Below, piece by piece: positions 12,783 through 30,653 of a stretch of 64,000 bases of DNA; the stretch's first letter is position 1, and the number at the start of each line of letters is the position of its first letter. Source of the stretch: a virus. A program made the translations under genes and the position numbers. The DNA lies in the IMG/VR virus record IMGVR_UViG_3300028025_003409, positions 45,058-109,057 of that record. One strand, written 5' to 3'. The notes under the pieces are model-generated. The model did no database searches. It saw only the letters and a list, made by a program, of their open reading frames with translations, and had not been told where the DNA came from.

Positions 12783-12810
12783 AAATCCTGAGCAAGATTT
12801 AAAACTGCTC
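12783..12810 (+). ncRNA. small H-type pseudoknot element, copy 1
   Basis: AAAUC/GAUUU and GAGCA/UGCUC interleaved stems. Confidence 0.6.
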
Positions 12811-13302
12811 CACACTCAAAATTTTGGGACGTCGCGTTCGGGCGTGTCGTCCACATGACGCAGATCACATTCAGAATTGAGCGTGAGTTATCCACATGAC
12901 CTACATCACATTTCAAAATGTCCGATTTGTGGCATTACTGGTCAGTAGATGTCAGACCCCCCTGCTATACTTACTAGTATAAAGAAAGTCAATCAAGGTG
13001 ATTGAACTAGAAAGGAATTCAAATGAATTCAACAATTATCAAGTGTGTAGAACACACACCCTTCAAGTCTGCTATCTCAGAGGTTGCAGATACACAATTT
13101 ACTTTTTGTGAAATTTGTGAAAATAACATTGAGCGTTGGTATAACGATACCGACCCTGAGCGTCTACCAATGTGGACAGATTGGAAGGTATCTAAATGAT
13201 AGACTTCGTAAAACAATTAGAATTAGAAAACTATCTTGCAGACGAGCAAGTAGACCCACTAGCAAAAATGCTAGATGAACTAATAAAGAAAGGAGAATAC
13301 AA

Positions 13303-13539
13303 ATGAGTCTATCCCTTGCTAATAAAATCGCAAAAGATAAATTCTTTCTGCCCCCTTCAAAATACATAAACCACAAAGTCGTGGAGATTGTATCTTTAAA
13401 TGAGGATAGCGGTATCGCTACTGTAATCCTAGAAAAATACACAATAGGCAGAAATGCTAATGTGTATAAAAATAATAATGTGTTCACAATTGAATTGCCT
13501 TATTCCGAATTTCAAAATCTAAATGGTTGGAGTGAATAA
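13303..13539 (+). CDS. hypothetical early protein
   Basis: AAAGGAG RBS. Confidence 0.6.
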   Translation: MSLSLANKIAKDKFFLPPSKYINHKVVEIVSLNEDSGIATVILEKYTIGRNANVYKNNNVFTIELPYSEFQNLNGWSE

Positions 13540-14182
13540 ATGAGTACCTATGTACCAATTAAATCTGTATGTGGTGCAGTAACTACCACAATTGACATCT
13601 ATGACATTGAGTTAAATCCTCACGGAGTAATCTGTTGCGATAACTGCAAGTCAATCATTCTATGCCGTAAGGCTTGGGATTTTCTATACAAGGAGAATAA
13701 GTAATGCCACTATTTGAATTTACAACATTTATAAATGTTGAAGCAGAAGACTATGACTCTGCTATTGCTATGTTTGACTCTAATTTAGAGTATGGTGGAA
13801 TTCGCAGAAGCGATGTTTATGTCGCAGAAATTGAGGAAAAGTAAAATGAGTTTTTATCAAACCTTTTTTGAAAGTGGCAACGCATTGTTTTGGTTTTCAA
13901 TGATCTGCTTAGCAAGTGGATTTTATTTATTTGTAAAAGAGTAGAAAAACGGGACGTCGCGTTCGGGCGTGTCGCCACGCTGTGAGATTTATCACATGGC
14001 TTGAGCGTCTCAGTATTTGGACTTACTGGCTAGTAACTTGATAATTTGTGAGTAATAGGCTAGACTTACATAGTAAGTAAAAATAAATAAAAGAAAGTCT
14101 ATCCCACTACGGCGTGTCTAACCGAAAATGTCAGACCCCTATGGTAGGATAGAATTATCAACAAAAAGAAAGAGGTTGGCAA

Positions 14183-14389
14183 ATGTCAGCAAATGTCTAT
14201 ACAATAGAACACCTACTTGTAGGAACACAATACCGCTCACGAACACTATCGGGAGAAATTATCTCAGCAGAGAAACACCCTAACGCAGTTTGGTATCAGG
14301 GTTGCGAAAGTTATCTAGTGGAAGTGCGCCCTAGTAATTTTGGAAAAGTCGTATGTCGCACAGTAGCAGTAAAGGTAGAAAATAACTAA
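14183..14389 (+). CDS. hypothetical early protein
   Basis: AGAGG RBS after TGTCAG-N10-TAGGAT promoter at 14129. Confidence 0.65.
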   Translation: MSANVYTIEHLLVGTQYRSRTLSGEIISAEKHPNAVWYQGCESYLVEVRPSNFGKVVCRTVAVKVENN

Positions 14390-14662
14390 TGGGATACATA
14401 GAGATTTTTAGAATTGACAATGAGGGTGCAGGTTGGATAGACTTGGACAATGCAACACCTAGCGAATTGCTAGACCTAGAAATTGGCTTATTTCAGGAAG
14501 GGGCTATCTAATGGGAGTAATGAAAGAATTGCACTTAGAGATAACTACTTGCGACCTATGCTATGGCACAGGTTGGCTATACTTTGGCAATAGCGAGGAC
14601 TTTGATACAGAGTCTTGCGATTGTAACCCACACCAACTATTTATAACTAAGGAGAATAACTA

Positions 14663-14881
14663 ATGAACGAATACCTATACTCAGTAACAACAACTAATGA
14701 CGGAGAGGCTAAGCCGAATTGGATTGGTCGCTACTCAGACGCACTAAGTGCCGTTGAAGTTTATCAGAGATTTATTGACCACGGATTTGCTAACGAATTC
14801 CGTACAGTAAATTTATCAGAGCCTAGTGGCAAAATGCATACAAAAATTTTGTATCGCAGTGGAATTGTGGGAGGTAAGTAA
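14663..14881 (+). CDS. hypothetical early protein
   Basis: AAGGAG RBS. Confidence 0.6.
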   Translation: MNEYLYSVTTTNDGEAKPNWIGRYSDALSAVEVYQRFIDHGFANEFRTVNLSEPSGKMHTKILYRSGIVGGK

Positions 14882-15042
14882 ATGGACATAACTACTTTTG
14901 CAAAAGGAATGAGCAAGATTGCTCCGAATTATGGCATAGGGTATGATAACTATGGTCAGGTTATTATTTATACTAACCTAAAAGAAACTGAAAATAATCA
15001 GTATGCAGAAATGTCAGATAACGATTTTGAGGAGAATAAATA

Positions 15043-15330
15043 ATGGGATCAGTTACAGCAATTGGATTAGCGGATAGCGTATTGGATTTAGAAACTCAAT
15101 TGGCGTATCACTTACAGGGTAATCACTATCCACCCGTACCACTTTCTATGGTTCAGCCTTGCATAGAAGCAATTGACGCATACTATGATGAGGACTATGA
15201 CCGATTTATTGCTATGCCTGAAGGCGTATTCTATAAGGGAATGAGCCACGCACCTGCCCACGCAATTGTAGACCAACACCACTTGTCTTGGTTTATTGAC
15301 CCAGTAGACGAATTTGAAGATGAGGAATAA
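15043..15330 (+). CDS. hypothetical early protein
   Basis: GAGGAG RBS; HLQGNHYPPVP motif. Confidence 0.65.
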   Translation: MGSVTAIGLADSVLDLETQLAYHLQGNHYPPVPLSMVQPCIEAIDAYYDEDYDRFIAMPEGVFYKGMSHAPAHAIVDQHHLSWFIDPVDEFEDEE

Positions 15331-15331
15331 A

Positions 15332-15574
15332 ATGAATGCTACAATGAGCGACATGGAACTAATCGAGGCAGATACACTTGCACCAGACCAACTAATGATT
15401 GGTGATTTAATAAAAGTAAACAATGACATTCTTGAAGTTATTTTTATTGAAAGTGATTCTACTGGAGATAACTACGATGTACAAGTAAAAAATGAATTTG
15501 ATGAATTAGAAATAATTCAATTTGCTTATACTGATTCTATTCCATTGTATGTTTTTATTGACTACGATGAATAA
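15332..15574 (+). CDS. small acidic beta-barrel-like hypothetical protein
   Basis: PDQLMIGDLI motif; GAGG RBS. Confidence 0.55.
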   Translation: MNATMSDMELIEADTLAPDQLMIGDLIKVNNDILEVIFIESDSTGDNYDVQVKNEFDELEIIQFAYTDSIPLYVFIDYDE

Positions 15575-15799
15575 GTAAAACTATTTTTATGCACTTCCCC
15601 GCATAAAAATGGGACGTCCCGCAGTCGGGCGTGTCTGTGTATATCCTGTGGATAACTATGTGCTACTCATGAGTAACCCTTTAAATATTTCTTTAAGATA
15701 GTTTATTTTATTTTCCCCGATTCTGGGCAAAATTTTTTGTGATTTTTATCACACGATCAGGATTTGACATTTTTATGATATGTGTGTTAGTATTGTTAT

Positions 15800-15946
15800 A
15801 TGAAAAAAACAAATGAGGAACTCCGCAGGCTTATGGAACTACGCCGTAGCAACGCTGCCTCTGCCGTGCCTTCTAAAAGGGCTTACAATCGAAAGAAATG
15901 TCAGTCCGAACTGTTACAATATAAATATCAACAAAAAGGAGAATAG
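15800..15946 (+). CDS. small basic leaderless protein
   Basis: ATG 6 nt after TTGACA..TAGTAT; MKKTNEELRRLMELRRSNAASAVPSKRAYNRKK. Confidence 0.55.
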   Translation: MKKTNEELRRLMELRRSNAASAVPSKRAYNRKKCQSELLQYKYQQKGE

Positions 15947-16109
15947 CCCATGACCTACGAAAACGATGAAATGCTAGATGAATACTATGCAACTGTATGC
16001 CCCTCATGCAAAGAAAATGCGGTAGACGCATATGAAGATAAATGCACTCATTGCTTACTAGAAGAAATGTCTGTCCACTATAACGAAGACATTGCTCTAG
16101 AAATGAGTC

Positions 16110-16850
16110 TTGGCCTTGACTACTGATACACTTAAACTTAAACGCTCTAATGATAGAAAGGTGGCTAATCTTGTCACAAAAAATGGAAAGCAAGCCGCAA
16201 TCGCAAATACCTTTGGACTACCTGCTGGAAAGGCTTTCTCGTGCCCTGGTGCCACTAGCGTATGTGAAAGCGTGTGCTATGCAGGAAAACTCGAAAAACT
16301 CTTCAAAGGCGTAAAGGCTAACCTCTTACACAATTGGACCTTACTTAAGGACGCCGATCAATTAACTATGGAGACACTGTTAACTGAAATGATTAACGAT
16401 TTCCGTGCAGACTGTGTAAAGAAAGACGCCCCTATGCTATTCCGTATCCATTGGGACGGAGATTTCTTTAATGATATATACACTCATGCATGGAAGAATG
16501 TAATCAATAACAATCCTGATATTCAATTCTGGGTATATACCCGTGTTAAGTCTGCTGCACTTATACTTAAGGATGTATCTAATCTATCATTGTACTTCTC
16601 TGCAGATAGTGAGAATGTAAAAACCGCCGTTGACTTAAAAATTAATAGTGGCGTACGTATGGCATACCTTGCTAAGAACTTTGCTATTGGTCAAGCCGAT
16701 GTAAAAGAAATGATAGGCAGACCTGCTGCTAAGTGTCCTGAGAATAATAAACAAATTCCACTTATCTCAACTAACGGTAGCGCTTGCGTTTCATGCTCAC
16801 TTTGTGTATACTCTAAGAGTGATATCATATTCTCTGCGAGTAAAAAATAA
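16110..16850 (+). CDS. GP88-like / radical-SAM-like Fe-S protein
   Basis: SCPGATSVCESVCYA, FRIHWDGDF, C-terminal CP...CxxCxxC. Confidence 0.7.
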   Translation: MALTTDTLKLKRSNDRKVANLVTKNGKQAAIANTFGLPAGKAFSCPGATSVCESVCYAGKLEKLFKGVKANLLHNWTLLKDADQLTMETLLTEMINDFRADCVKKDAPMLFRIHWDGDFFNDIYTHAWKNVINNNPDIQFWVYTRVKSAALILKDVSNLSLYFSADSENVKTAVDLKINSGVRMAYLAKNFAIGQADVKEMIGRPAAKCPENNKQIPLISTNGSACVSCSLCVYSKSDIIFSASKK

Positions 16851-17096
16851 ATGAGCACTGCATTCTATTTTTGGATAATGCTAATACTACTAATAAGTTT
16901 ATTAGGTGGTGGTGGTTGGTGATGATCCCCTGAAAAATGGGGACGTCGCAAAATCTTTGATTTGTCAAATTACGACACGCATAAAAAATGTGGGGTTTAT
17001 CACACTAGAAAATGTCATTTGGATTAGGATTTATGACATTTTTATGCTAAAATTATACTATAAGCAAAACCCCCACAACAGAAAGGCAAGACCCAA

Positions 17097-17267
17097 ATGA
17101 CACTAGGCGGATACACTTACCAAATTGGTGATTTATTCACAACCAGCAAAACAGGCATTACGGGACGCATTAGCGATTTCACCCCTGTCAATGCTAAACT
17201 AACTAGAGTTTCATTACGCTTGGCAAACGGCGCACACCGATTTGCTATGGTAAAGACCTCTAAGTAA
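17097..17267 (+). CDS. small SH3-like protein, paralog 1
   Basis: TYQIGDLFTTSKTGITGRI; own promoter and AGAAAGG RBS. Confidence 0.6.
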   Translation: MTLGGYTYQIGDLFTTSKTGITGRISDFTPVNAKLTRVSLRLANGAHRFAMVKTSK

Positions 17268-17374
17268 TCTCAAAATGTGAGAAAATGTCGAAATGGATTT
17301 GACATTTCTACAAGCAAAATGTTATACTTAGGTATAACCAAATAACAACCCCTAACAGAAAAGAGAAAAAACAA

Positions 17375-17539
17375 ATGGCAGTAAATACAGCAACATACAA
17401 GGTCGGCGATACTTTCACGACACAGAAGTCAAAGGTTAGCGGAGTAATCACAGAGATTACACCACAGGCTAACGGAAATGTCCGAGTAAAGTTAGATGTA
17501 GATGGCAAGCCACGCTACACAACTTGGACGGCTAAGTAA
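17375..17539 (+). CDS. small SH3-like protein, paralog 2
   Basis: TYKVGDTFTTQKSKVSGVI; TTGACA-18-TATACT promoter. Confidence 0.6.
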   Translation: MAVNTATYKVGDTFTTQKSKVSGVITEITPQANGNVRVKLDVDGKPRYTTWTAK

Positions 17540-17590
17540 TCTAATTACTAAGTGTCGGGCGTACAGGCACTATAAATAAGGGGCGAGAAC

Positions 17591-17618
17591 GAACCTGAGC
17601 AAGTTCCAAAAAGGCTCA
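17591..17618 (+). ncRNA. small H-type pseudoknot element, copy 2
   Basis: GAAC/GUUC and UGAGC/GCUCA. Confidence 0.5.
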
Positions 17619-17652
17619 ACACCCCCACTAACAGAAAAGGAAACAAAAACAA

Positions 17653-18075
17653 ATGGCAAGAGGCAAAGCAATCTCAGTAAAAATCCCTACTCAACGAGTA
17701 ATCACCGCACTAGAGTCTGCACTAGCAAAACTAGAGTCAGACTACGCATCACAAGAACAAAAGGAAGCACAGTACCAACTTCTATACAAGGCTTGGCAGA
17801 AAGAGTTAGCAGATTTCGCTATTGCTAATTTCTCAAAGGCTGAGAACATTAGAACAAACTTCCGTTCTTGGAACAAGACCCTCAACATTGACTTCGACAT
17901 TATTGGTAGCGAAAGCAATTTCCCTGCTGAACCTGAGAAGCAACACGAAACTATCCATCAGCACACTTATCGTGAGCAAAAAGAGGAAATGCAAAATGCA
18001 ATTCGTATCCTCAAAATGACAGATGAGGAAGTTGTAAATACTTCCACATACAATGCGGTTGCTCGCTATCTCTAA
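17653..18075 (+). CDS. hypothetical protein
   Basis: AAAGGA RBS, 140 aa. Confidence 0.7.
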   Translation: MARGKAISVKIPTQRVITALESALAKLESDYASQEQKEAQYQLLYKAWQKELADFAIANFSKAENIRTNFRSWNKTLNIDFDIIGSESNFPAEPEKQHETIHQHTYREQKEEMQNAIRILKMTDEEVVNTSTYNAVARYL

Positions 18076-18082
18076 GTGAGAT

Positions 18083-18264
18083 TGGGTGGGGTGTAAAAGC
18101 CCCACTCATTATCCCCTGAGTTCCACGCTATTTATAGCAAGTGTCCCCTGGGGATCCTTCGCCAGGCTGATTAGGGCGATAACAGAAATACTATAGAGCC
18201 AGTTCACACCAACTGCAAGAAGTGTAACTACCTGAGTAAGTATCAAAACTGCTCCCCGCAAGGG
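18083..18264 (+). ncRNA. run of structured RNA elements ending in pseudoknot copy 3
   Basis: successive stems UGGGUGGGGU/GCCCCACUCA, AUCCCC/GGGGAU, UCGCC/GGCGA, then UAC/GUA + GAGUA/UGCUC. Confidence 0.5.
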
Positions 18265-18329
18265 TCCTTGACAAATGTCAGTGGTCTCGTGTACAATTAA
18301 ATTAAACAAACTAACAGAAAGAGGCCCCC

Positions 18330-18749
18330 ATGGACCAAACAACAAACACAGTAGTGAATGCCACAGAAGACTTTCTTCGTGACTCACTAGCCAAAGCAAC
18401 ATTGCGTGTTACAGAATTAGAGGAGCACATCTCTAAGGTTACGCAGCGCTCATATGCAGAGTCTGCAGATAAGAATCGTATCGTTGAAGCAATGCAAGAG
18501 TGGACCCTTGGGGCCCTTGAGCACGGCACCATTGATGAATCAGATGCAGAAGAAATTGCAGACATCTGTGGATTTGAACTAACGAAAGAATTCGAAGTTG
18601 AAGTCACAGTCATGTATTCGGTTACCGTAAATGCTCGCACTGAAGAGGATGCACAGAATGCAATTCATGATATTGATTTTGATACTGTAGACTACAATTC
18701 AGATTCAATTTCATATCTATCATCCTCAATTGATAGAGTTGACATTTAG
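18330..18749 (+). CDS. acidic hypothetical protein
   Basis: AGAGG RBS after dual TTGACA/TGTCAG promoter at 18268-18297. Confidence 0.7.
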   Translation: MDQTTNTVVNATEDFLRDSLAKATLRVTELEEHISKVTQRSYAESADKNRIVEAMQEWTLGALEHGTIDESDAEEIADICGFELTKEFEVEVTVMYSVTVNARTEEDAQNAIHDIDFDTVDYNSDSISYLSSSIDRVDI

Positions 18750-18767
18750 TAGGGGGCTACTAACAAA

Positions 18768-18799
18768 AGACCTGAGCATGTCTGTACGTAAACTGCTCA
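18768..18799 (+). ncRNA. small H-type pseudoknot element, copy 4
   Basis: AGAC/GUCU and UGAGCA/UGCUCA. Confidence 0.6.
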
Positions 18800-18985
18800 T
18801 TTTTAAAATCCCTCAAAATTTGGGACGTCCCGCCGACCAGTCATTGTCAAATCGACACGCCGTTTACGAAGGGTGATCTTTGCCACAATGTTCGATTTAT
18901 CCACATCTAACTATCCCGATTTGCATATGTCAGTCAGTCCTGCTATACTTAGAATTCAACAACAAAAAGAAAGAAGGAAAAACCT

Positions 18986-20008
18986 ATGGCACATGACCTA
19001 GAAACTCAAAACGGAAAAACATCTTTTGCGTCTTTCCGTGAACCTGCTTGGCATGGATTGGGTACCGTATTCACAGAAGAGAAAACAACCGCAGAAATGC
19101 TAGAGGCTGCAAACCTCAATGGTTGGAATGTTCGTCTTGAGGATTTGGAAACCCCTACACATCTAACAAGCGACAAGGCGTACCAATATGTCTTGCGTAC
19201 AAATCCTACCGACAACACACAAACCGATATTCTTGGTGTAGTTGGTGAGCGATACCATGTTTTGCAGAATGAAGATTTATTCTCATTCGGTGATAACATT
19301 CTTGACGGCGGAGGTCGTTGGGAGACTGCTGGCTCAATCAAGGGTGGTCGTGTCGTGTTCGGTGCATTAGCACTAGAGCGTGAAACAATTCTTGACCCTA
19401 ATGGTGTTGCAGACAAGGTAAAAACTTATTTGCTCATCAACACATCACATGATGGCTCAATCGCTATTCAAGCAAGCATTACACCCGTTCGTGTCGTGTG
19501 CGCTAACACTCTCAATCTTGCGCTTGGTGGCGTAGGTCGTAAGAAGAATAAGGGTATCAAGCAATCTTTCAAGATTCGCCATACACAAACTGCAAATGGT
19601 AAAGTGCAAGTTGCTCGTGAGACTCTTGGTCTTGCTAATGCATACATGAACGAATTCGATATCATGGCTAAGGCAATGATTGAGAAAGAAGTTTCTGCTA
19701 AGCAATTCAACGACATCATTCTTGCTGCTTACGCTAAGCCTGAAAAGGATTCTAAGGGTTCACTAAAGAAGTGGGAAAATAAAGTTGATGTTATCAACGA
19801 TATTTACACTGGTGAATTCAATGGAATGATTGCGGGTAATGCGTGGGGTGCTTTCAATGCACTAACCGAACGCCTTGACTGGTATCGTTCTGCTCGTGGT
19901 GGTTCTAACGAATCTATCCTTGCAAGCGCAAGCGGATTTGACCCTGCTATCAACGCAGAAAAAAATCGCTTACTAAAAGTTGTGCAGAATGTAATGTCTC
20001 TCGCATAA
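18986..20008 (+). CDS. DUF932/DUF945 phage-plasmid family protein
   Basis: PAWHGLG, LGVVGERYHVLQN, WETAGSIKGG, SHDGS, RVVCANTL, IRHT. Confidence 0.85.
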   Translation: MAHDLETQNGKTSFASFREPAWHGLGTVFTEEKTTAEMLEAANLNGWNVRLEDLETPTHLTSDKAYQYVLRTNPTDNTQTDILGVVGERYHVLQNEDLFSFGDNILDGGGRWETAGSIKGGRVVFGALALERETILDPNGVADKVKTYLLINTSHDGSIAIQASITPVRVVCANTLNLALGGVGRKKNKGIKQSFKIRHTQTANGKVQVARETLGLANAYMNEFDIMAKAMIEKEVSAKQFNDIILAAYAKPEKDSKGSLKKWENKVDVINDIYTGEFNGMIAGNAWGAFNALTERLDWYRSARGGSNESILASASGFDPAINAEKNRLLKVVQNVMSLA

Positions 20009-20015
20009 TAAAAAA

Positions 20016-20043
20016 ATTCCTGAGCAAGAATAAAAACTGCTCA
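20016..20043 (+). ncRNA. small H-type pseudoknot element, copy 5
   Basis: AUUC/GAAU and UGAGCA/UGCUCA. Confidence 0.6.
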
Positions 20044-20049
20044 CCATTT

Positions 20050-20123
20050 GGTCCGTTAGAATAGTTGGTTAGTTCGCCACCCTGTCACGGTGGAGGTCAT
20101 GGGTTCAAGTCCCATACGGATCG
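20050..20123 (+). tRNA. tRNA-Asp (GTC)
   Basis: cloverleaf GGTCCGT/ACGGATC, anticodon arm CCACC-CTGTCAC-GGTGG, TTCAAGT T-loop. Confidence 0.92.
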
Positions 20124-22992: not shown

Positions 22993-23018
22993 ATCTAGGG
23001 TCAGACTGTGCCTAAGGG

Positions 23019-23043: not shown

Positions 23044-23082
23044 CCCCTAACTTTTGCGGTATAATGGAAGAGAGGAGGGACT

Positions 23083-23307: not shown

Positions 23308-23619
23308 ATGGATTTTGCAGATAAGGCTGGAGCGATTGGTCAGTTATGGATTGAGTTCCGTAATGATGAAGATTTCTCGGCATTCATGGATTACAACGAC
23401 CTAGGTTGTCCAATGGCATACATGGTGGCAGAAGGTTTGATTAAAGAACTTACACCTATTGGTGAAGAGATGATTACTGAAACATTTAAGATGTTTCTAG
23501 AGTTAGTTAATGTTACAGAGGAAGAGATTGACTCTGTACTTCCAGATAAGAACCTTGGTTCTATCTTGGTCTTTGCTCACAATAAGAAGAAAAACTCAAC
23601 ACCAGACGAAGAAGAGTAA
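23308..23619 (+). CDS. hypothetical protein
   Basis: operonic, acidic. Confidence 0.65.
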   Translation: MDFADKAGAIGQLWIEFRNDEDFSAFMDYNDLGCPMAYMVAEGLIKELTPIGEEMITETFKMFLELVNVTEEEIDSVLPDKNLGSILVFAHNKKKNSTPDEEE

Positions 23620-23699
23620 CAAGATTATCCTTGATCCCTGGGCTTGACAAAAGCCTGGGGTTATGGGACGTCTCAGGACGTCAAATCGGACATATCGGA

Positions 23700-24650
23700 C
23701 AAACCTCTCAAACCTTATATTTCTAAAAATAAGATTACGAAGGGGTTTTTTCTTTTCCCCAATCATGGACAAACCATCTTTCTCAAAAAAAGATTACGTA
23801 GCACAAAAACCTTTCCCCATTCATGGCTTATACCATATCAAACCTTGTTTGTCAAACCTTTATATTTGGTGTTATAATAAAGATATGAGTCCAAGACACT
23901 TTGCAAACTATGCAAAACAATATCCTAAACAATATCAGGCATTCTCCGATAACATGTGGAATAGTTTTGTAGGTATTACTCATACTATAGGTTTGGGTAG
24001 ATTCTTTTCATTCACCCCCGAATTTTTAGCGCCCCCGCTCACCAAGGCATCTGGCGTTTTTGCTGAAGCAGATCTTGAAGCATTAGATCCCACCAAAATC
24101 GGGCGGGAATTAGGCAAGGTATACAATCAAACACTACCTGATAACAAACCTCTATAGTATAAAACCCTCTATAGAATAGATTACGAACCCTTGATTATTT
24201 TTCCCAGAGTTTTAGAATATTATCCAAACCTTTATATAATTTTATAAAGGTTTTCTTTATTTTCTGAGCAAATTCGAACAAATTTCATATGAATTTTATG
24301 GGCATATTCATGCATAGAAGGACTTGACAAACCATGGTTTTGCATGTATAATGCCCAAACCTTACTATGGGAAAGAAGGTTTGACAATATCGGGAATATG
24401 TGGTAAGAAGGTTTGAAGGTTTGGGATATGGAGGTTTGGCCGTAAGAAGATTACGACGCCTTCTATAAAAGCGCTCTATCCTCCACTACTCTCCACTTTA
24501 CTCCACTTCTAGACTATCTAATTAAATAATCAGTAACATTTATCTGTGGATAAACCTGTGGATAACTATGATCAAAACCTTACAAACCAGACATTACGAA
24601 CCTAACAATATATCTCCCAAACCTCACAACCTGTGGATAACTGCTATACT
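23700..24650. other. putative replication origin-like locus
   Basis: many CAAACCT/AGGTTTG copies switching strand near 24370, perfect TTGACA-17-TATAAT, CTCCACT x3 at 10-bp period, AT-rich stretch, three TGTGGATAA DnaA boxes. Confidence 0.55.
23885..24157 (+). CDS. hypothetical leaderless protein
   Basis: TGTTATAAT followed by ATG 23885; upstream part of track ORF 23663 is regulatory DNA. Confidence 0.5.
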   Translation: MSPRHFANYAKQYPKQYQAFSDNMWNSFVGITHTIGLGRFFSFTPEFLAPPLTKASGVFAEADLEALDPTKIGRELGKVYNQTLPDNKPL

Positions 24651-24750
24651 ATAACTATGCTAAATGTCCTATGCTTTGACTGTGGTGGTATGTTCCAGGT
24701 ATCATATGAAACTCCAAACCCTACTAAACAATGTCCAAAATGCCAGGGGA

Positions 24751-25062
24751 TCAAGTCTCCTTTATAGCCTTGTTGACCATACGGATCAAACCTCGTCTAG
24801 TGATCTTACTAGCATCAAATGTCTCCGTATAGCCCCCTTGTGGCATATCCGCCTTATCTAGAAAATAACCATGCTTTGCCCTTAGTGTTCTTAGTACTAG
24901 GGTTTCTACTGTTCTCGCTTTATCCCGTTCGAAAAAATACCAATACTTGACGAGTATCCATCCTTTGGTCCTATGGCTTGCAAACCTCTTGCCTGAGACA
25001 TCAGATATCCCTATCTTGACAGCCTTGTATACTGGGCTGTATAGGATGTATAGTAGGGTCAT
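24751..25062 (-). CDS. GIY-YIG-like (T5orf172-type) nuclease domain protein
   Basis: LYILY...VKIGIS...R...E...GGYTETF. Confidence 0.65.
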   Translation of the reverse strand: MTLLYILYSPVYKAVKIGISDVSGKRFASHRTKGWILVKYWYFFERDKARTVETLVLRTLRAKHGYFLDKADMPQGGYTETFDASKITRRGLIRMVNKAIKET

Positions 25063-25284
25063 TACTCTATTATACTTGACATACCGTGCAAAATTGGATA
25101 TACTTGAAGTATGACTAATCAAGAGATATCTGACCTATTAAATAAAGAATCTTACAAGGTTTGGGACACTGCTAAAGTAATTAAGAACCAAGACTACCAT
25201 GATGGACTGGTTAAGGGTTTGAAGATGGCTGCTCAGTTTGTTTCTAAACTTGACTAAACCCTCAACTTAAGGTATACTGGATAT

Positions 25285-25515
25285 ATGCAACTATTTATGA
25301 GCGAGTATGCCTCGTGGGTGCTCGCTGTCATTGGAGTCACAGGCATCTTCTTTGTTGGTCGTAAGACCATTTGGGGATGGTTCGTACTCCTATTCAACGA
25401 AGTTCTTTGGATAGCCTATGCCCTATATACAAACCAGTATGGCTTTATATTTAGCGCACTTGCCTATGCAGCAGTTTATCTTAAGTCATACCTACACTGG
25501 AGGCGTGAAGAGTGA
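25285..25515 (+). CDS. PnuC-like small membrane protein
   Basis: three hydrophobic helices, GRKTIWGW...WIAYA. Confidence 0.55.
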   Translation: MQLFMSEYASWVLAVIGVTGIFFVGRKTIWGWFVLLFNEVLWIAYALYTNQYGFIFSALAYAAVYLKSYLHWRREE

Positions 25516-25923
25516 AGCCTAAAGAGTGTGTAAAGTGTAAGATGGAAGTCAAAGATCCTTTATTCTGGGATACACATCAGACTATGACAGATGACTGGAT
25601 TTGGTGTGCTAAGAAATCTTGAGATACCTGATCCATTCCAAACCTTTGTAGCCAAAAAATATGCTAACGCTAAGGGTGCTGTCTATGACTTCTTTAGCGG
25701 TGAATGGTCTTATACCTGTGGTGCTTGCAAAGAGCCTTTATCTGGTCCGTCCCGCAAAATATTGACAAAGATTCGCCTATACCACAGTAGAAATGAGTGC
25801 TTAAATGGATACTGAACAAACCTTCGATCAAGAGTTTAGTGTTGAAGAGATTACGAAAGCCATTGTAGATCAGGCTAAGGCTGATGTTAAGTCTCGCTAT
25901 GGAAATAAGAAAAGACATAGACA

Positions 25924-26184
25924 ATGAGATCTTGTAGTGCCATTACGAAAAAGAAAAAGCCATGCCCAATTTATGTTGATGACTGGCGTACCGTTGATCT
26001 TTGCCATGTACATGATCCAAATGGAAAGTTTAGAACACAGGTAAGAAATGGCACTACCAGAAGGCTAAGGAAAGAGAACTCTCCTAAGGCTAAGAAAGAG
26101 TGTCAGCATACTTGGTATATGCGTGAGGATGGTATACAATGTACTAAGTGTCTAGTTATATGGGAGAGCGATGAAAGAGCCTAA
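25924..26184 (+). CDS. small zinc-binding protein
   Basis: CSAITKKKKPC...CHVH and CQHTW...CTKC. Confidence 0.55.
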   Translation: MRSCSAITKKKKPCPIYVDDWRTVDLCHVHDPNGKFRTQVRNGTTRRLRKENSPKAKKECQHTWYMREDGIQCTKCLVIWESDERA

Positions 26185-26234
26185 GATTGCACAGATGGAT
26201 TGGCGTAGCCTAGGTTACTGGCCTATCTGGAAAG

Positions 26235-26603
26235 ATGGAAAGAAAGTGTGGGTGCCTAAGGATGATAAATCATTCGACAAAGACACAAAGAACTAAGATA
26301 TGGCCTTTACGATGGATAGGAAATTTTCTTGGTGGCTATGCTGGTAATCATTTAGTTAAGTGTGTTAATATGGATGAGGATGAAGAGCATGGCCTTGCCT
26401 ATAAGTACCACGCAAAAATGTGGAAGTATCTTAATAAGCCCTATGAGTGGTGGGGAACATACTACACCATAGATATGGATGCTTGGAGAGAAGAGTTAGA
26501 TCAGATGAAGTTAGACATGTCTGGCTCTGGTTGGGATGATTATGATGAGTTTGGTAAGGCATATTGGGATAAAGAAACAGATAGCGAGTCGCAAGACTCG
26601 TAG
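26235..26603 (+). CDS. hypothetical protein (start uncertain)
   Basis: ORF track; Trp/Tyr-rich. Confidence 0.5.
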   Translation: MERKCGCLRMINHSTKTQRTKIWPLRWIGNFLGGYAGNHLVKCVNMDEDEEHGLAYKYHAKMWKYLNKPYEWWGTYYTIDMDAWREELDQMKLDMSGSGWDDYDEFGKAYWDKETDSESQDS

Positions 26604-26827
26604 GGTTGTTTAAGTATCTCTATTTTGCGCCGAACTTTAAAAACTTGACATCCATCCGCCGAACCTGTATAATTGGTATATGAGTATAGACGAAATGATT
26701 TTGCGAGAAGAAATTGCAAGGGCTATTGAGGCTTTGCCCATTGAACCATCAAAAACAAATGCTTTGGGCATGCGTATTGCTGCTGCTCAAATAGCAAGGG
26801 GAGACGATAACTATATGACTAAAATGT

Positions 26828-27637
26828 TTGAATCTCAGGTCGACTTTGAATAAAGATCTAAACCTAACTAAAGAAGAGTGGCTTGGCTTTGCGGTAAACA
26901 AAAGTATCCTAAAACCATCTAACTCAAATGAATGTGTTATTGGTGGATACATTGAAGACTTTTCTTATGATGATGTAGACATATACGACACCAAGTTCTC
27001 AAGCGTAGATGATGTAGACTATTGGTTTACTATTGGTACGATGCATGGTTGGCTTGGTAAGACTGGTTGTGTTAAACATGAGTTAGATAAGTTTAACTTT
27101 GTTTTTACCCTGCAAGATATAAAGATCCTCTACCCAGATAAACTACCAGAGATTAGAAAAAGAACTCATATACCAGAGAACAAAGACTGGTTTGCATATC
27201 AAGCAAGTGAGCCAGAGATGACAAAAGAACTTCTTGGCAAAGCCTTAGAGTTTTCTTACTGTAACACACTAATAGACATTGGCTGTGGCCTTGGAGAAGT
27301 ACTAAAGATTGGCATAGATGCTGGGTACAAGAATGTAATGGGCCTTGAGATACAAAAAGAATTGGTTGACCTAGCAAGAAATGATGAAAGATTAGAAATA
27401 ATTCATGGATCTGGATCAGATTACATCTTGCCAGACAAACAACTTCATGTGTTTATGTTTAATCCATTTAGTAACAATGTCATGATAGACTTTTTAGATA
27501 ACAATATAGAAAACATTAAGAAAAATAAGTCTTTAGTTATATACAATTATGCATTTTCTGGACACCATTTGATGGTCATGTATGGTCTAAAGATGATATA
27601 TACCAATAACTTTGCAATTATTTATGCTGCAGATTAG
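26828..27637 (+). CDS. class I SAM-dependent methyltransferase
   Basis: IDIGCGLG motif I, acidic GLE, FMFNPF. Confidence 0.75.
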   Translation: MNLRSTLNKDLNLTKEEWLGFAVNKSILKPSNSNECVIGGYIEDFSYDDVDIYDTKFSSVDDVDYWFTIGTMHGWLGKTGCVKHELDKFNFVFTLQDIKILYPDKLPEIRKRTHIPENKDWFAYQASEPEMTKELLGKALEFSYCNTLIDIGCGLGEVLKIGIDAGYKNVMGLEIQKELVDLARNDERLEIIHGSGSDYILPDKQLHVFMFNPFSNNVMIDFLDNNIENIKKNKSLVIYNYAFSGHHLMVMYGLKMIYTNNFAIIYAAD

Positions 27638-28402
27638 ATATGATATAATAAAGTATGGCACAAAAATGTTTCTATTGCGAAAAGACTGCTGAGTATAATG
27701 ACTTGGTTAAAGAAGGTGACAACTATGTCGTTACTGGTGTATGCAAAAAACATTGTAACAATTACCATGAGGCATCTTGAGTCAAAAAAGACATAAAAAG
27801 AATCTTAAGAGAAAATCAAAAAAGCCAAATACATCTAAGTTTGAAAGAAAGATTAAAAGAATCAGGGATAAGATTATTAATGATGCTCTTGTAACTATTC
27901 GAACAAATCTTCCAAGCAATCTGGACAAAAAAATGTTGGAAGACCGTCAGAGTGACGCATTCCTCCGTAATAAGAGTGCCCATCCCAACTCTCTTTTATA
28001 AAATCACTAGTCATATATCCATAAACATATGGCTTTTTGTTATCATGATCACAGTATTCCATTTTTCTCCTAAAATATCTTAGTATACAGTTATATTGTA
28101 TCATATAATGGACTTTACAAAGACTGGGCCTTAGTGTATACTTATAATATGACAAACTTACTACTACTTATACCTGCTTTTATTGCTGGATACCTTGTAT
28201 GCTATTTTATAATGACGCAAGGTGTTGATCAAGAGGATACCAATACATGAGTTTAATGACACAAGAAATAGTTGATAACTTGCCTAGAGAAGTAAAAAAA
28301 GCAGTTATAAAAGAATATCTTCAGACAACATATTATTGGTCTGTTGGTCTTTTTTCTTTTCTTATTGGAGTATTTTCAACATTACTAATTAAATAAATTT
28401 AA

Positions 28403-28476
28403 GCACCAGTAGCCAAGTTGGTTAAGGCCCCGAACTCATAATTCGGTTATCATAGGTTCAAGTCCTATCTGGTGTA
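28403..28476 (+). tRNA. tRNA-Met/Ile2 (CAT)
   Basis: GCACCAG/CTGGTGT acceptor, CCGAA-CTCATAA-TTCGG. Confidence 0.9.
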
Positions 28477-28480
28477 CTAA

Positions 28481-28553
28481 TGGGGATTAACTCAGTTGGT
28501 AGAGTGGCGAACTGTTAATTCGCAAGTCGCAGGATCGAGGCCTGCATCCCCAG
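28481..28553 (+). tRNA. tRNA-Asn (GTT)
   Basis: TGGGGAT/ATCCCCA acceptor, GCGAA-CTGTTAA-TTCGC; atypical T-loop ATCGAGG. Confidence 0.85.
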
Positions 28554-28557
28554 CAAT

Positions 28558-28630
28558 GTCTCCATGGTCTAGTGGCCTAGGACTCCACCCTTTCACGGTG
28601 GCAACACGGGTTCGAATCCCGTTGGAGATA
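28558..28630 (+). tRNA. tRNA-Glu (TTC)
   Basis: GTCTCCA/TGGAGAT acceptor, CCACC-CTTTCAC-GGTGG, TTCGAAT. Confidence 0.92.
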
Positions 28631-28634
28631 CTAA

Positions 28635-28707
28635 ACCTCTGTAGTTCAGTGGACAGAACGATGGACTTCTAAGCCATGCGTCGCAAGTTCGATTCTTGCC
28701 AGGGGTA
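28635..28707 (+). tRNA. tRNA-Arg (TCT)
   Basis: ACCTCTG/CAGGGGT acceptor, CTTCTAA loop, TTCGATT. Confidence 0.9.
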
Positions 28708-28837
28708 CTTTACTTTTTAGGATGTTTTGGTTCGTATGGTTCAATCTTAGATTTAATACGACCATCTTTATATAGTCTTACAATCCAACCATCTTTAATT
28801 TGCATTGGATTAAATGCATGTGCTTTTTTCTTTGGCA

Positions 28838-29524
28838 TTATAATGTGTGTCTTTCTGTTTGATTTCTTGTATAATCTTTTCCAAAGTCAGCAAACAAGGC
28901 TTTATCTTTTTCACGATTAACAATCCCTCTTGACCAAGAAAACCCTGCATCTCCACCCCACGCTAACCACATAATGTAGCCATTAGATGGGTTTGCTGAG
29001 TTGCCCCAGTCCTTACCCTTCTTATCTACTTCATGGCGTGAGAAATATGAGTACATTCTCTTGACAGTACTAAGAGAGATTGTTTCTCCTCTTGCTAACT
29101 GCCCTGCACGAGTCCAACCTACAGATGTTCCAGCACCATTAGCCTTACCATCTTCCTTAAACTTAATTGCTCTGCGAGCAGCAGATCGTGCTCCAGCAGG
29201 TGGTGAGTATCCATCAGCCTTTGAAACCGTGTCTGTATCATACTCAACAGTATCATCATCTTCAAATAGATCATCTGCTTTTGCAGCAGGAACACAATTA
29301 GGAACTGGTTTTCCATTATCTCCTGGCTTCATGCCACGCTGTACATAACCTTCCCAGCATGGATCAGCCTTTCCAATTGATGAGTCATACATGGCCATAG
29401 AAACCTCTGAATCGGTGTTTGGAGAGCATACAGGACAGTCTGGGCAGTCTACATTAAGTTCTTTGCAAGTCTCACATTCGCAACCCTGATATGTGCTTGT
29501 AGGCATCATTGAATCATCTATCAT
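28838..29524 (-). CDS. multi-motif phage protein, possibly head-associated
   Basis: Cys-rich N-terminus, PCWEGYVQRGMK...VPNCVP motif, VKRMYSYFSRH...WLAWGGDAG domain. Confidence 0.6.
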   Translation of the reverse strand: MIDDSMMPTSTYQGCECETCKELNVDCPDCPVCSPNTDSEVSMAMYDSSIGKADPCWEGYVQRGMKPGDNGKPVPNCVPAAKADDLFEDDDTVEYDTDTVSKADGYSPPAGARSAARRAIKFKEDGKANGAGTSVGWTRAGQLARGETISLSTVKRMYSYFSRHEVDKKGKDWGNSANPSNGYIMWLAWGGDAGFSWSRGIVNREKDKALFADFGKDYTRNQTERHTL

Positions 29525-29544
29525 TAGATTAGTATACCATATAC

Positions 29545-30129
29545 TTAAAAATCAACTGGCTCCAGCATAGACTCATCAACATCACAGACTAAATTAATAA
29601 CAATAGAAAACCTAAAATCTGCTTCATTTGGAAACTCCCAGTTATGGAAAATATCACCATCAAAAAATAAGGCATACCCAGCCTTTGGGGTAAATGACTT
29701 ATATAATTCTAGGCTATCCCCATCTACATGTTCTCCAGTATACTTCTTGCTATAAAAATTTGTGCTTCCATCGGCATCGTTAGCATAATAAACAAGGTTA
29801 TAGTTTTTAACAACTCTTCTTAGATCTACATGGGGTTCCATTGGCCTTGGATCATTTGTCTTGCAGGTTAAGTTTGCCCTGCCTCTCAAAATCTTGTGAA
29901 CAGTCACATTGTTTTTAGCAGCAAACCTTTCTATAATATAGTCCACAATATCTTTATCCAAAGGCTCATTAACTAAGATTCCCTTGTCAGAATACTTACT
30001 TCCAGTCAAGCCAACAATTCCATCTTTTGCAGCGTTAGGACGCACAAAAAGATATGGTAAACCCTGTATCTTATTTTTTAAGTAAACAACTTCTTCTGGT
30101 GTTAAAAAATTATTGGTATATTTATACAT
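29545..30129 (-). CDS. 2OG-Fe(II) oxygenase
   Basis: PHVD...VYYANDADGST...FDGDIFH...R. Confidence 0.8.
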   Translation of the reverse strand: MYKYTNNFLTPEEVVYLKNKIQGLPYLFVRPNAAKDGIVGLTGSKYSDKGILVNEPLDKDIVDYIIERFAAKNNVTVHKILRGRANLTCKTNDPRPMEPHVDLRRVVKNYNLVYYANDADGSTNFYSKKYTGEHVDGDSLELYKSFTPKAGYALFFDGDIFHNWEFPNEADFRFSIVINLVCDVDESMLEPVDF

Positions 30130-30140
30130 ACTTTATTATA

Positions 30141-30413
30141 TCATGACTGACCATTAAGCCTATTGTGAGTTCTAATCCTATGACAGTTAGCACACACTAC
30201 TTCACATTTTTCGATCTCTTTCTTTATAGACTTCCAAGAAAAACCATCATGAATCATTCTTGACACATTATATTTCTTATCTCTTATATGGTCAAAATCT
30301 AAGATAATATGATTATTGATTCCACAATCTACACAGCCAGAATCTTCTTTTATCTTAGCAAGTTTTCTTTTATACTCTTGCTTATTATAGATATCTAACT
30401 CTTTGTCAGTCAT
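30141..30413 (-). CDS. HNH endonuclease
   Basis: CVDCG...LDFDH...CEVVCANCHRIRT; probable leaderless start 30413. Confidence 0.85.
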   Translation of the reverse strand: MTDKELDIYNKQEYKRKLAKIKEDSGCVDCGINNHIILDFDHIRDKKYNVSRMIHDGFSWKSIKKEIEKCEVVCANCHRIRTHNRLNGQS

Positions 30414-30441
30414 TGCTTCTATTATACCCTGCAATATTAGG

Positions 30442-30525
30442 GCCCCACACAGGCAATTCACCTGACTTGCGCCACGGTCTCTATCCAATGGGTAACTAAT
30501 CCATCACTAAGGTCCTGTGTGGGAC
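30442..30525 (-). ncRNA. candidate 84-nt structured small RNA
   Basis: 12-bp closing stem GUCCCACACAGG/CCUGUGUGGGGC, two internal hairpins (one GCAA tetraloop), TGCTACAAT 6 nt upstream. Confidence 0.65.
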
Positions 30526-30547
30526 AATTATATTGTAGCATAGGAAA

Positions 30548-30653
30548 TGAGCAGTTTATAGACTTGCTCAGGTCCCCCAAGTTGCGATCTTGGGCTTATC
30601 CGTACTCAGCAATAGGGTTGCTAAAAGCAACTGCATGTATCATGACGGAATAG
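30548..30653 (-). ncRNA. candidate structured RNA ending in pseudoknot copy 6
   Basis: TATAAT next to the hsp20 stop; UCCGU/ACGGA, GUUGCU/AGCAAC, CCCAAG/CUUGGG, then GAC/GUC + UGAGCA/UGCUCA. Confidence 0.55.

Follow-up and report, generated by a model that had tools for sequence, protein, structure and literature searches.

A minimal H-type pseudoknot of phage and bacterial gene gaps: a candidate 3'-terminal cap for processed mRNA segments

Six copies of one RNA motif in a phage genome

In a stretch of phage DNA 64 kb long, hereafter called the window, a short motif recurs in the gaps between genes, and the question arises what a small folded element of this kind can do for the transcripts that carry it. 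A preliminary description, made from the letters of the window, reported six copies of a compact H-type pseudoknot whose stem 1 covaries. All six are present (Table 1), and the stem 1 pairings given for them are correct. They are scattered, with a single copy in any one gene gap. The pattern CTGAGYA-N8-20-TGCTC matches the window 5 times against 0.25 expected, and 5 matches were reached in none of 100 shuffles; the copy outside this pattern (copy 2) carries GGCTC. With a covariance model built from relatives the six copies scored 26–50 bits versus 14.6 bits for the next-best match in the window, and no seventh copy with a stem 1 turned up when all 109 kb of the genome were scanned under relaxed criteria.

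Table 1. Pseudoknot copies and the adjacent tRNA gene in the window (S1, S2, stems 1 and 2; L1, L3, loops)
Feature	Position (strand)	S1	L1	S2	L3	Bits	Surroundings
Copy 1	12783-12810 (+)	AAAUC/GAUUU (5 bp)	C	GAGCA/UGCUC (5 bp)	AAAAC	49.8	6 nt past TAA of ORF 12597-12776
Copy 2	17591-17618 (+)	GAAC/GUUC		UGAGC/GCUCA (GGCUC variant)	CAAAAA	42.3	51 nt past ORF 17375-17539; ATG at 17653, 34 nt further on
Copy 3	18229-18254 (+)	UAC/GUA (3 bp)		GAGUA/UGCUC, one G-U pair		40.2	153 nt past ORF 17653-18075; downstream, CCCGCAAGGG hairpin, then promoter-like TTGACA-N18-TACAAT (18268-18297)
Copy 4	18768-18799 (+)	AGAC/GUCU		UGAGCA/UGCUCA (6 bp)	GUACGUAAAC (long)	26	18 nt past TAG TAG of ORF 18330-18749; UUUUU next
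Copy 5	20016-20043 (+)	AUUC/GAAU		UGAGCA/UGCUCA		49.9	7 nt past TAA TAA of DUF932 gene (18986-20008); 6 nt 5' of tRNA-Asp
tRNA-Asp (GTC)	20050-20124 (+)						CCA not encoded
Copy 6	30548-30575 (-)	GGAC/GUCU, one G-U pair included		UGAGCA/UGCUCA		37.5	89 nt past Hsp20-family gene (30665-31081, -); upstream of HNH-endonuclease-like ORF (30141-30488, -)

The copies were said to lie always on the transcribed strand. This holds for the window, where all six occupy the coding strand, as well as for 80 related loci, where all 300 matches listed (of 350) are on the gene strand. Location just after a stop codon was borne out for three copies (6, 18 and 7 nt) and failed for the other three, which lie 51, 89 and 153 nt past the ORF; the copy expected directly before tRNA-Asp does end 6 nt from its 5' end.

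Two covarying helices and a wide family

The element is an H-type pseudoknot of 26–32 nt. Stem 1 has 3–5 bp with an invariant closing C-G pair, and a single C (L1) bridges it to stem 2 of 5–6 bp (UGAGYA/UGCUCA; in the window three copies have the shorter form and three the longer), the coaxial stack being 9–11 bp. One free base follows the stem 2 strand and an A-rich loop (L3) ends with AAAC, while L2 is without conservation. The position next to UGAGYA, entered as W in the preliminary consensus, has to be corrected to N across the wider family. Covariation was estimated in an alignment of orthologous sites, picked by the neighbouring gene with the motif ignored. In this alignment 92.5% of cells were paired against about 30% with partners slid, and compensatory changes were registered in both helices; broader alignment sets gave 89–90% of paired cells. 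In alignment A5, for instance, stem 1 pair 36-49 is represented by UA (30) and AU (24), stem 2 pair 41-61 by GC (47) and AU (7), and stem 2 pair 42-60 by AU (50) and GC (4). Stem 2 variants at the orthologous site include UAGGCA/UGCCU and UAGACA/UGUCUA, and a descriptor free of any stem 2 sequence found 358 unique matches versus 19 in shuffles, compensated stem 2 variants among them. The compact fold with covarying stem 1 is thereby fully supported, and covariation now reaches stem 2. Judged from the aligned sequences, the knot is a classical H-type pseudoknot with two interleaved helices, both backed by compensatory changes. Since stem 2 varies with compensation, it is the helix that appears to be selected, not its letters.

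The same changes bear on the idea that the motif operates in DNA, as an oriented protein-binding site resembling "stoperators" of cluster A mycobacteriophages. Its copies are indeed oriented and intergenic and have two conserved half-sites, but recognition of duplex DNA fails to explain compensatory changes that keep two interleaved helices complementary, which makes such a role extremely improbable.

The Rfam search suggested together with the preliminary description gave no match of the knot to any Rfam 15 family (4227 models). At the gathering threshold the whole window returned tRNAs only, at E ≤ 10 nothing was found at any copy between positions 12500 and 20200, and in carrier loci of other organisms only tRNAs and hammerheads were registered beside the knot. 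Full-text literature searches found no description of such a knot either, and it is apparently undescribed so far. Hundreds of its variants were found: related phages from lakes, unrelated viral contigs (GC 30–69%), cultured phages and genomes of many bacterial phyla all contain them. Cultured carriers infect Actinobacteria, Firmicutes and Alphaproteobacteria (Arthrobacter phage Amigo, mycobacteriophage Labelle, Staphylococcus phage StB12, Bacillus phage Page, Lactobacillus phage phig1e and roseophage SIO1). The element, therefore, is not peculiar to the phage of the window, and its family spans many bacterial phyla.

Over contigs of 30–69% GC and many phyla the sequence of stem 2, the C of L1 and the AAAC of L3 remain conserved. 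This favours an assumption that a small ligand or a host factor of wide conservation binds to the knot, the fold being the docking surface, and that flanking genes are regulated in this way (through next-cistron translation or recruitment of a processing enzyme, for example), with end protection being secondary, if any. A phage-encoded partner is unlikely, because carrier phages share no obvious gene; flanking genes encode DUF932 and Hsp20 proteins, an HNH endonuclease and unknowns. Nearest-neighbour energies are modest (from −0.4 to −2.8 kcal/mol for stem 1 and from −2.7 to −6.3 kcal/mol for stem 2), which is weak for an autonomous roadblock and speaks for a bound partner. A ribosome-binding site with a start codon is located within 45 nt downstream in 12–25% of copies, head scaffolding genes being a recurrent downstream partner. 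The architecture also resembles that of preQ1-I aptamers. These are likewise about 30 nt long and H-type in fold, and in them, too, a short second helix comes after an A-rich 3' loop. In the knot, however, stem 2 is a full 6-bp helix, and the copies are multiple and stand after stop codons. A preQ1-I riboswitch as such was rejected: no Rfam PreQ1 match was obtained at E ≤ 10, and the flanking genes listed above include none for queuosine. A type III antitoxin RNA (ToxI-like) was rejected as well, given dispersed copies that form no tandem array; family scans of knot-flanking genes revealed no ToxN-like neighbour. Regulation through a bound factor or ligand is at variance with the compensated stem 2 changes at the orthologous site and with variable L2, and copies preceding tRNAs, ribozymes or promoters cannot act on a downstream start codon. 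On balance we consider it an unlikely explanation that still deserves attention.

Position between stop codons and cleavage sites

In related phages an upstream ORF of at least 40 codons ends no more than 60 nt before the knot in 207 of 241 unique copies (86%), while the distance from the knot to the next ORF is broadly distributed. The spacer between the stop codon and the 3-bp core of stem 1 was counted in three sets, i.e. related phages, unrelated viral contigs and bacterial genomes. Spacers of 0–5 nt were found in at most 1–3 copies per set, the modal length is 6–7 nt, and approximately half of the copies are more than 15 nt past the stop codon, some of them 50–150 nt. A lower bound of 6 nt and a mode of 6–7 nt recurring in three independent sets may suggest that the knot acts on the ribosome terminating at the upstream stop, slowing its termination or recycling from a place at the mRNA entrance, or barring post-termination sliding and so insulating the tRNA, ribozyme or next cistron downstream. 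It is well known that frameshift and read-through pseudoknots use the same spacer range (6–7 nt). Mechanically resistant recoding pseudoknots are built in the same way, with a 6-bp stem 2 spanned by an L1 of 1 nt and with an A-rich L3. Among those of retroviruses and luteoviruses, SRV-1, BWYV and the MuLV read-through signal share with the knot the H-type fold, this L1, an A-rich L3 crossing a short stem 1, and location 6–7 nt past the A-site codon. The modal spacer falls within the range expected for recoding signals (about 5–9 nt from the A-site codon), with about half of the copies further away. Yet the knot follows genuine and often doubled stops (TAA TAA before copy 5 and TAG TAG before copy 4), its UGA is spread over the frames of the ORF without preference (53/72/82), and no extended ORF was found, so that a recoding function was rejected. 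The unbiased frame, the double stops and the distant copies count equally against any action on the terminating ribosome, and a plain spacer would insulate just as well; this explanation seems improbable to us.

Termination was among the functions offered initially. A terminator or pause signal could be made of stem 2 as a terminator hairpin pre-organised by stem 1, and the knots do follow genes where canonical terminators are lacking; on the plus strand of the early region of the window they are almost absent. A U-run stands after 6–15% of copies, including copy 4, but in most copies a U-tract is missing, and the helix is neither long nor rich in GC. Moreover, RNA polymerase must read through the knot, because tRNAs, hammerheads and ribosome-binding sites located 0–45 nt downstream leave no room for a promoter. 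On the same grounds of rare U-runs and close downstream elements an intrinsic (Rho-independent) terminator was rejected, and termination or pausing in general is very unlikely.

What follows the knot is more informative. The 5' end of a tRNA lies 3–9 nt after it in 51 of 251 related copies, and other viral contigs show this placement in 20 of their 197 copies (with one outlier at 14 nt). Tandems of this type make up 10–20% of viral copies, comprising 71 unique copies and six tRNA species, and only one case of a tRNA upstream of the knot was detected. At the orthologous DUF932 sites the knot is inserted between the stop codon and tRNA-Asp in 79 of 79 cases, and in Arthrobacter phage Amigo the SSB gene is followed by the knot, 3 nt and tRNA-Gly. 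Hammerheads occupy a similar position in at least 12 tandems, their predicted cut being 5–20 nt past the knot; Rfam recognised type III hammerheads at loci L216, L349, L335 and L348, and weakly at L340 (E 0.046). No recognisable cleavage element is present after approximately 75–85% of copies. The 5' ends of tRNAs are the sites of RNase P cleavage. Knots preceding tRNAs or hammerheads are thus structures immediately 5' of a cleavage site, and in the window the presumed RNase P cut at tRNA-Asp would leave copy 5 six nt from the new 3' end.

Participation of the knot itself in cleavage can also be imagined, either as a tiny self-cleaving ribozyme or as a mimic of the tRNA acceptor arm that RNase P or RNase Z would cut directly. 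Knots and hammerheads have a common niche in gene gaps, the coaxial stack of 9–11 bp is close to the 12-bp top half of tRNA, and the 3' flank in the clade of the window leans to ACCA (A 73%, C 55%, C 48%, A 42%). The latter bias, however, vanishes outside this clade, the motif matches no Rfam ribozyme and is too small, with no known catalytic core, and a cleaving element beside a hammerhead or a tRNA would be redundant; we find such participation highly improbable. The hammerhead core consists of CUGANGA and GAAA around a three-way junction. The CUGAGYA of the knot has Y at the essential G8 position and the fold contains only two helices, so that in the absence of Rfam matches hammerhead, pistol and twister were all rejected. 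Self-cleaving ribozymes of phage operons (hammerhead and pistol; Perreault 2011, PMC3088659; Harris 2015, PMC4604425) share the genomic niche with the knot, which can be fused directly to type III hammerheads but has no ribozyme core and lies 5' of the cut, not around it. Hammerheads are believed to break phage transcripts down into mRNAs of one gene each, around ardA among other places (PMC3088659), and ardA-type genes recur both around knots and in phage hammerhead contexts.

A possible cap for the upstream cistron

Location after ORFs, 3–9 nt 5' of tRNA ends and next to hammerheads lends comparative support to 3'-end protection or processing, another function named in the preliminary description. 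Based on this, one can assume that the knot is a 3'-terminal cap protecting the upstream cistron once polycistronic RNA is cut, a reading that we prefer while regarding it as somewhat short of probable. Each copy would be transcribed within polycistronic phage mRNA and fold as a minimal H-type pseudoknot, beginning just out of reach of the ribosome parked at the upstream stop codon. In vivo the transcript would be cut a few nt downstream, by RNase P if a tRNA follows, by a hammerhead ribozyme if one follows and presumably by host endonucleases elsewhere, and the upstream cistron would then end with the knot, followed by a tail of only a few nt. To engage structured RNA, PNPase, RNase II and RNase R require about 7–10 nt of single-stranded 3' tail. 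Denying 3'-to-5' exoribonucleases a single-stranded start, the cap might stabilise the upstream message.

Similar arrangements are known. The 3' module of MALAT1 and MEN-beta consists of a triple-helical ENE followed by tRNA-like mascRNA, which is cut by RNase P. Both systems have a compact structure with an A-rich strand directly 5' of the RNase P site (the knot–tRNA gap being 3–9 nt), which would protect the new 3' end. MALAT1, however, is eukaryotic and its U-rich hairpin clamps a genomic A-tract, whereas the knot is a 26–32 nt H-type pseudoknot of phage and bacterial mRNAs, its tRNAs are real and hammerheads can substitute for them. RNase III sites of T7, REP elements and intercistronic hairpins of puf and pap are also oriented, intergenic and present in multiple copies in polycistronic RNA, and their processing leaves a structure at the upstream 3' end. 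These are long hairpins defined by stability or RNase III recognition, in contrast to the minimal knot with its conserved loop residues and weak helices.

Some observations do not agree with a cap. Because the helix energies are modest, an effective block of exonucleases would need tertiary contacts or a partner, and a plain roadblock leaves strong cross-phylum conservation of stem 2, the bridging C and AAAC unexplained. In H-type pseudoknots the triplex formed by the A-rich loop and stem 1 probably withstands a force arriving from the 5' side better than one from the 3' side, which also counts against a cap. Most copies have no recognisable cleavage element, and some sit in 5' UTRs, such as copy 2 of the window and chromosomal copies of Saccharibacteria, 21 nt 5' of the start codon. 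Still, it is conceivable, and we propose it tentatively from comparative data, that phages, conjugative elements and some chromosomes use this so far unrecognised class of minimal pseudoknots, spread over many phyla, to cap the 3' ends of mRNA segments in a modular way after RNase P, hammerheads or endonucleases have released them. This would be a prokaryotic counterpart of the MALAT1 triple helix with mascRNA, and the conserved core of the knot may dock a universal factor.

Cultured carrier phages make the cap directly testable. If it is real, phages and other mobile elements of many bacterial phyla have in common a portable device of 28 nt by which the stability of each cistron cut from a long transcript is set. 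Few natural RNA structures known from thousands of examples would be smaller. Annotation of phage genomes would gain a feature that it now lacks, and the design of synthetic operons a compact part. It is a long-standing puzzle why self-cleaving ribozymes and tRNAs occur in the gene gaps of phages, and the cap would help to explain it: ribozymes and tRNAs would create RNA ends, one of which would be protected by the knot.

Fold and covariation

The window makes up the 3' 64 kb of a virus record of 109 kb in one contig, with 33–43% GC, five tRNA genes and many small ORFs. A nucleotide search with 9 kb of the window against cultured phages gave no match; relatives were gathered through the DUF932 protein, whose gene has its best cultured protein matches in Streptomyces phages (about 52% identity) and close relatives encoded by more than 400 IMG/VR contigs. 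All six compact pseudoknots proposed in the preliminary description were found exactly at the positions listed in the table. They share the sequence [S1]-C-UGAGYA-N-[S1']-(N0-5)AAA(C/A)-(U/G)GCUC(A), in which the loop of the stem 1 (S1) hairpin pairs with the segment 3' of the A-rich run, giving an H-type pseudoknot (below, the knot). A simple pattern gave 5 copies in the window, where chance would give 0.25. Scanned with relaxed criteria, the genome as a whole showed S1 at these six sites only, and a covariance model built from relatives scored the six at 26–50 bits and everything else at no more than 14.6 bits. Five complete relatives of the phage carry 5–8 copies apiece, arranged, as here, in an early-region cluster with one distant copy on the opposite strand.

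Positions of the knots and of the features discussed with them (window coordinates unless a locus is named)
Feature	Position	Strand	Remark
Copy 1	12783-12810	+	ends a gene cassette, promoter-like sites ahead
Copy 2	17591-17618	+	in a 5' UTR
Copy 3	18229-18254	+	ends a gene cassette, promoter-like sites ahead
Copy 4	18768-18799	+	ends a gene cassette, promoter-like sites ahead
Copy 5	20016-20043	+	DUF932 gene, 7 nt, knot, 6 nt, tRNA-Asp
Copy 6	30548-30575	-	ends a gene cassette, promoter-like sites ahead
Module after copy 1	12812-12900		common with copy 4
Module after copy 4	18800-18912		common with copy 1
ORF before copy 3	17653-18075
Non-coding stretch	18076-18228		150 nt, between this ORF and copy 3
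Hairpin and promoter-like site after copy 3	18255-18297		directly 3' of the knot
DUF932 gene	18986-20008	+
tRNA-Asp	20050-20124	+
Early genes	11600-28700	+	about 17 kb of + strand genes
Polynucleobacter MAG contig	L216:7290-7630	-	two knot-hammerhead units
Alistipes finegoldii	L202:960-1350	-	ribozyme, ORF, knot
Saccharibacteria	L231:3700-3830		5' UTR knot

The consensus comprises an S1 of 3–5 bp with an invariant closing C-G pair, a loop L1 of a single C, a stem 2 (S2) of 6 bp, an L2 of one unconserved base and an L3 of 5–10 nt ending in AAAC, or in AAAA ahead of GGCUC. Textbook examples of compact triplex-forming pseudoknots have an L1 of 1 nt over a 6-bp helix and an A-rich L3 over a short S1, a geometry that the knot by analogy appears to adopt. 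Its helices are thermodynamically weak. Tertiary contacts or a partner have to be assumed to explain why S2, L1 and L3 are strongly conserved, and this speaks for a module binding some factor or ligand, a reading that we nevertheless regard as unlikely. Across the family the dinucleotide 5' of GCUC is either CU or AG, its two bases co-varying (AAAAC-UGCUC versus AAAAA-GGCUC). The AG form turns the last S2 pair from A-U into A.G; a tertiary or junction constraint seems to lie behind this co-variation. Resemblance to a boxA-like NusB/E site was dismissed, since UGCUC shares only 5 nt with boxA.

Among pattern matches S1 length is bimodal, either 0–1 or 3–6 bp. In alignments of related phages (A1, n = 87), of bacterial genomes with unrelated viral contigs (A4, n = 104) and of one orthologous site (A5, n = 56), 88.7%, 90.4% and 92.5% of cells were paired, against about 30%, 20–37% and 29–36% when the partners were slid. 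S1 pairs in A1 are very diverse (in one of them AU 41, UA 24, CG 13, GC 9). A5 consists of the sequence 3' of the DUF932 stop codon from every related locus, picked by the protein C-terminus only; as the motif itself had no influence on the choice, it is the cleanest test of the fold. The knot lies between this stop codon and tRNA-Asp in 79 of 79 orthologous sites, and compensatory changes in A5 bear out the claimed fold in both helices: UA 30 / AU 24 and AU 38 / UA 7 at two S1 pairs; GC 47 / AU 7, AU 50 / GC 4 and GC 53 / AU 1 in S2. Fully compensated S2 variants (UAGACA/UGUCUA, UAGGCA/UGCCU) also occur. A structural descriptor carrying no S2 sequence returned 358 unique matches versus 19 in shuffled DNA; about nine in ten have UGAGYA, and the remainder includes compensated variants. 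The knot, of which more than 500 distinct examples were collected, is a genuine structured RNA. Its placement on the transcribed strand, also proposed earlier, was reproduced in all 300 matches listed of the 350 that the covariance model gave in 80 DUF932-linked loci; that it acts as a DNA site is very improbable.

Genes before the knot and elements after it

An ORF of at least 40 codons ends no more than 60 nt upstream of 207 of 241 unique copies (86%) in related phages. The spacer from the stop codon to the 3-bp S1 core was compared in related phages, other viral contigs and bacterial genomes: lengths of 0–5 nt occur in at most 1–3 copies per set, 6–7 nt is the commonest (50, 32 and 21 cases, respectively), and a tail extends to 150 nt. 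From the A site to the mRNA channel entrance the ribosome covers about 6 nt of mRNA, so the minimum spacer suggests that the knot stands as near the stop codon as is possible if the terminating ribosome is not to unwind it. A role directed at the ribosome itself is, in our estimate, quite improbable. Recoding was rejected, as the UGA of the knot is spread over all three frames without preference (53/72/82) and some copies follow double stop codons.

In bacterial genomes the ORFs 5' of the knot include ones for minor head, head morphogenesis, protease, portal, ArdA, DUF3768 and DUF7249 proteins, and those 3' of it ones for head scaffolding (at least 10 of 60), ArdC and DUF932 proteins; such genes belong to phages and conjugative elements. 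A phage-specific partner protein was discarded because the flanking genes are too mixed (head genes, ArdA/ArdC, DUF932, DUF3768, RNR, SSB).

Elements downstream of unique knot copies (bacterial genomes: matches listed)
Set	Copies	tRNA within 15 nt	RBS and start within 45 nt	U-run	Stable hairpin	Hammerhead-like	Other
Related phages	251	51	29	37	28	1	105
Other viral contigs	197	20	47	25	21	0	84
Bacterial genomes	98	1	25	6	17	3	46

The distance from knot to next ORF is broad. As for copy 5, which does stand directly before tRNA-Asp as first reported, the gap to a following tRNA (Asp, Leu, Gln, Trp, Glu or Asn) is 3–9 nt, with one outlier of 14 nt; one contig has two knot-tRNA pairs, and in one case only does a tRNA lie just upstream. 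The window tRNA-Asp has no encoded 3' CCA (G-CAAG follows the acceptor end), and its maturation would thus need host 3' trimming and CCA addition. Mimicry of a tRNA acceptor with 3' ACCA was rejected: outside this phage clade the bias disappears, and its +1 A simply completes the sixth S2 pair.

Hammerhead ribozymes form the second group of recognisable cutting elements. The Polynucleobacter contig has two consecutive units of knot and type III hammerhead around a 51-codon ORF; S2 of the first knot is fully compensated (GAGUA/UACUC), stem III begins at the first base after S2, and self-cleavage would leave a 5-nt tail. A dedicated IMG/VR scan gave 42 stretches in which CUGANGA comes after a knot. 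About 20 of 30 unique ones look hammerhead-like by eye, and several tandems have a ribosome-binding site and ATG 3' of the ribozyme; a strict matcher accepted at least 12 unique tandems with tails of 5–20 nt. Rfam confirmed only four of the tandems submitted (Hammerhead_3 in loci L349, L335 and L348; L340 weakly, E 0.046). No other known ribozyme was found beside the knot in 18 unrelated viral loci, and we give very little credence to the knot being an intrinsic ribozyme or RNase P substrate. Most copies lack a recognisable cutter after them; whenever one is recognisable, the knot is on its 5' side. In Alistipes finegoldii a RAGATH-1 hammerhead and a knot bracket one small gene of 73 codons.

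Other observations concern the surroundings of window copies. Copies 1 and 4 are followed by a common module, AAAAUUU(U)-GGGACGUC, a GC-rich hairpin and ...UUAUCCACAU, which could be an endonuclease site between two structures; an AU run with a GC-rich hairpin is frequent 3' of the knot in related loci. The sequence GGGACGTC at this module is treated as a finding separate from the knot. Copy 3 is followed by a CCCGCAAGGG hairpin with a GNRA loop, which at least 15 related loci also have 3' of the knot, and then by a promoter-like site TTGACA-N18-TACAAT. The non-coding stretch before copy 3, a candidate structured RNA in the preliminary description, had no match in Rfam.

Distribution and novelty

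Pattern scanning of IMG/VR gave at least 128 matches, many on contigs dissimilar to this genome (30–69% GC), and S1 of at least 3 bp was present in 126 of the 128 listed, though the pattern did not require it. One genome per prokaryotic species yielded at least 120 matches (S1 in 98 of the 120 listed); the sources of those listed include Saccharibacteria, other Patescibacteria, Bacteroidota, Firmicutes, Actinobacteria, Proteobacteria, Chloroflexota, Cyanobacteria, Omnitrophota, Acidobacteriota and two Methanobrevibacter MAG contigs. BLAST with two window copies reached cultured phages: the knot follows the ribonucleotide reductase gene in roseophage SIO1, separates minor-head/portal genes from scaffold and major-head genes in Lactobacillus phage phig1e, Staphylococcus phage StB12 and Bacillus phage Page, and in Arthrobacter phage Amigo lies between the SSB gene and, 3 nt further, tRNA-Gly; mycobacteriophage Labelle and crAss-like, Erwinia, Paracoccus and Clostridium phages also carry it. 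The knot is pan-bacterial in mobile DNA, with a clear positional grammar.

Saccharibacteria have a conserved chromosomal knot in a 5' UTR (equivalents in loci L200, L243 and L283), flanked by the D-Ala-D-Ala carboxypeptidase gene and valS. An extended -10 (TGCTACAAT) lies about 85 nt 5' of it, and 21 nt 3' of it comes the start codon of a 138-aa gene of no assigned function, followed by a HIT-family gene; a 14-codon mini-ORF ends within L3.

The Rfam search suggested at the outset (Rfam 15) matched no family to the knot, either at the gathering threshold or, over positions 12500–20200, at E ≤ 10. Full-text literature gave no description; the Weinberg 2015 list, where RAGATH motifs were reportedly first compiled, was outside its coverage, so an earlier description is possible. 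Intercistronic RNA structure tied to processing is of a kind already known; as far as could be checked, the novelty lies in the architecture, in the conservation and in the fusion to RNase P and hammerhead sites.

Possible role at processed 3' ends

Since tRNAs, ribozymes and start codons follow within 0–45 nt, transcription must pass through the knot. The earlier proposal of a termination element fails at this point, and, with no room left for a promoter, a terminator has only a slight chance of being the right reading. After processing the knot would become the 3' terminus of the upstream cistron and shield it from 3' exonucleases, enzymes that engage only on a longer single-stranded tail. 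Where a hammerhead makes the cut, the new end would in addition carry a 2',3'-cyclic phosphate. The downstream fragment would then begin with the ribozyme body or mature tRNA. Judged from sequence, such protection is the best supported reading, because the knot is tied to the upstream ORF and placed 5' of any recognisable cutter. We put it forward tentatively, as a serious possibility, because the helices are weak, tertiary contacts or a partner are called for, most copies have no cutter, and the Saccharibacteria copies lie in 5' UTRs. Copy 5 fits it directly, copy 2 less well. The MALAT1 triple helix with mascRNA is a parallel to the arrangement of knot and cutter. The early region of the window has many strong sigma-70-like promoters scored and only two terminator-like sites on the + strand, both weak. 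Protection of processed 3' ends by the knot would agree with this near absence of canonical terminators, and with the proposal that hammerheads cut phage transcripts, including those around ardA, into single-gene mRNAs (PMC3088659).
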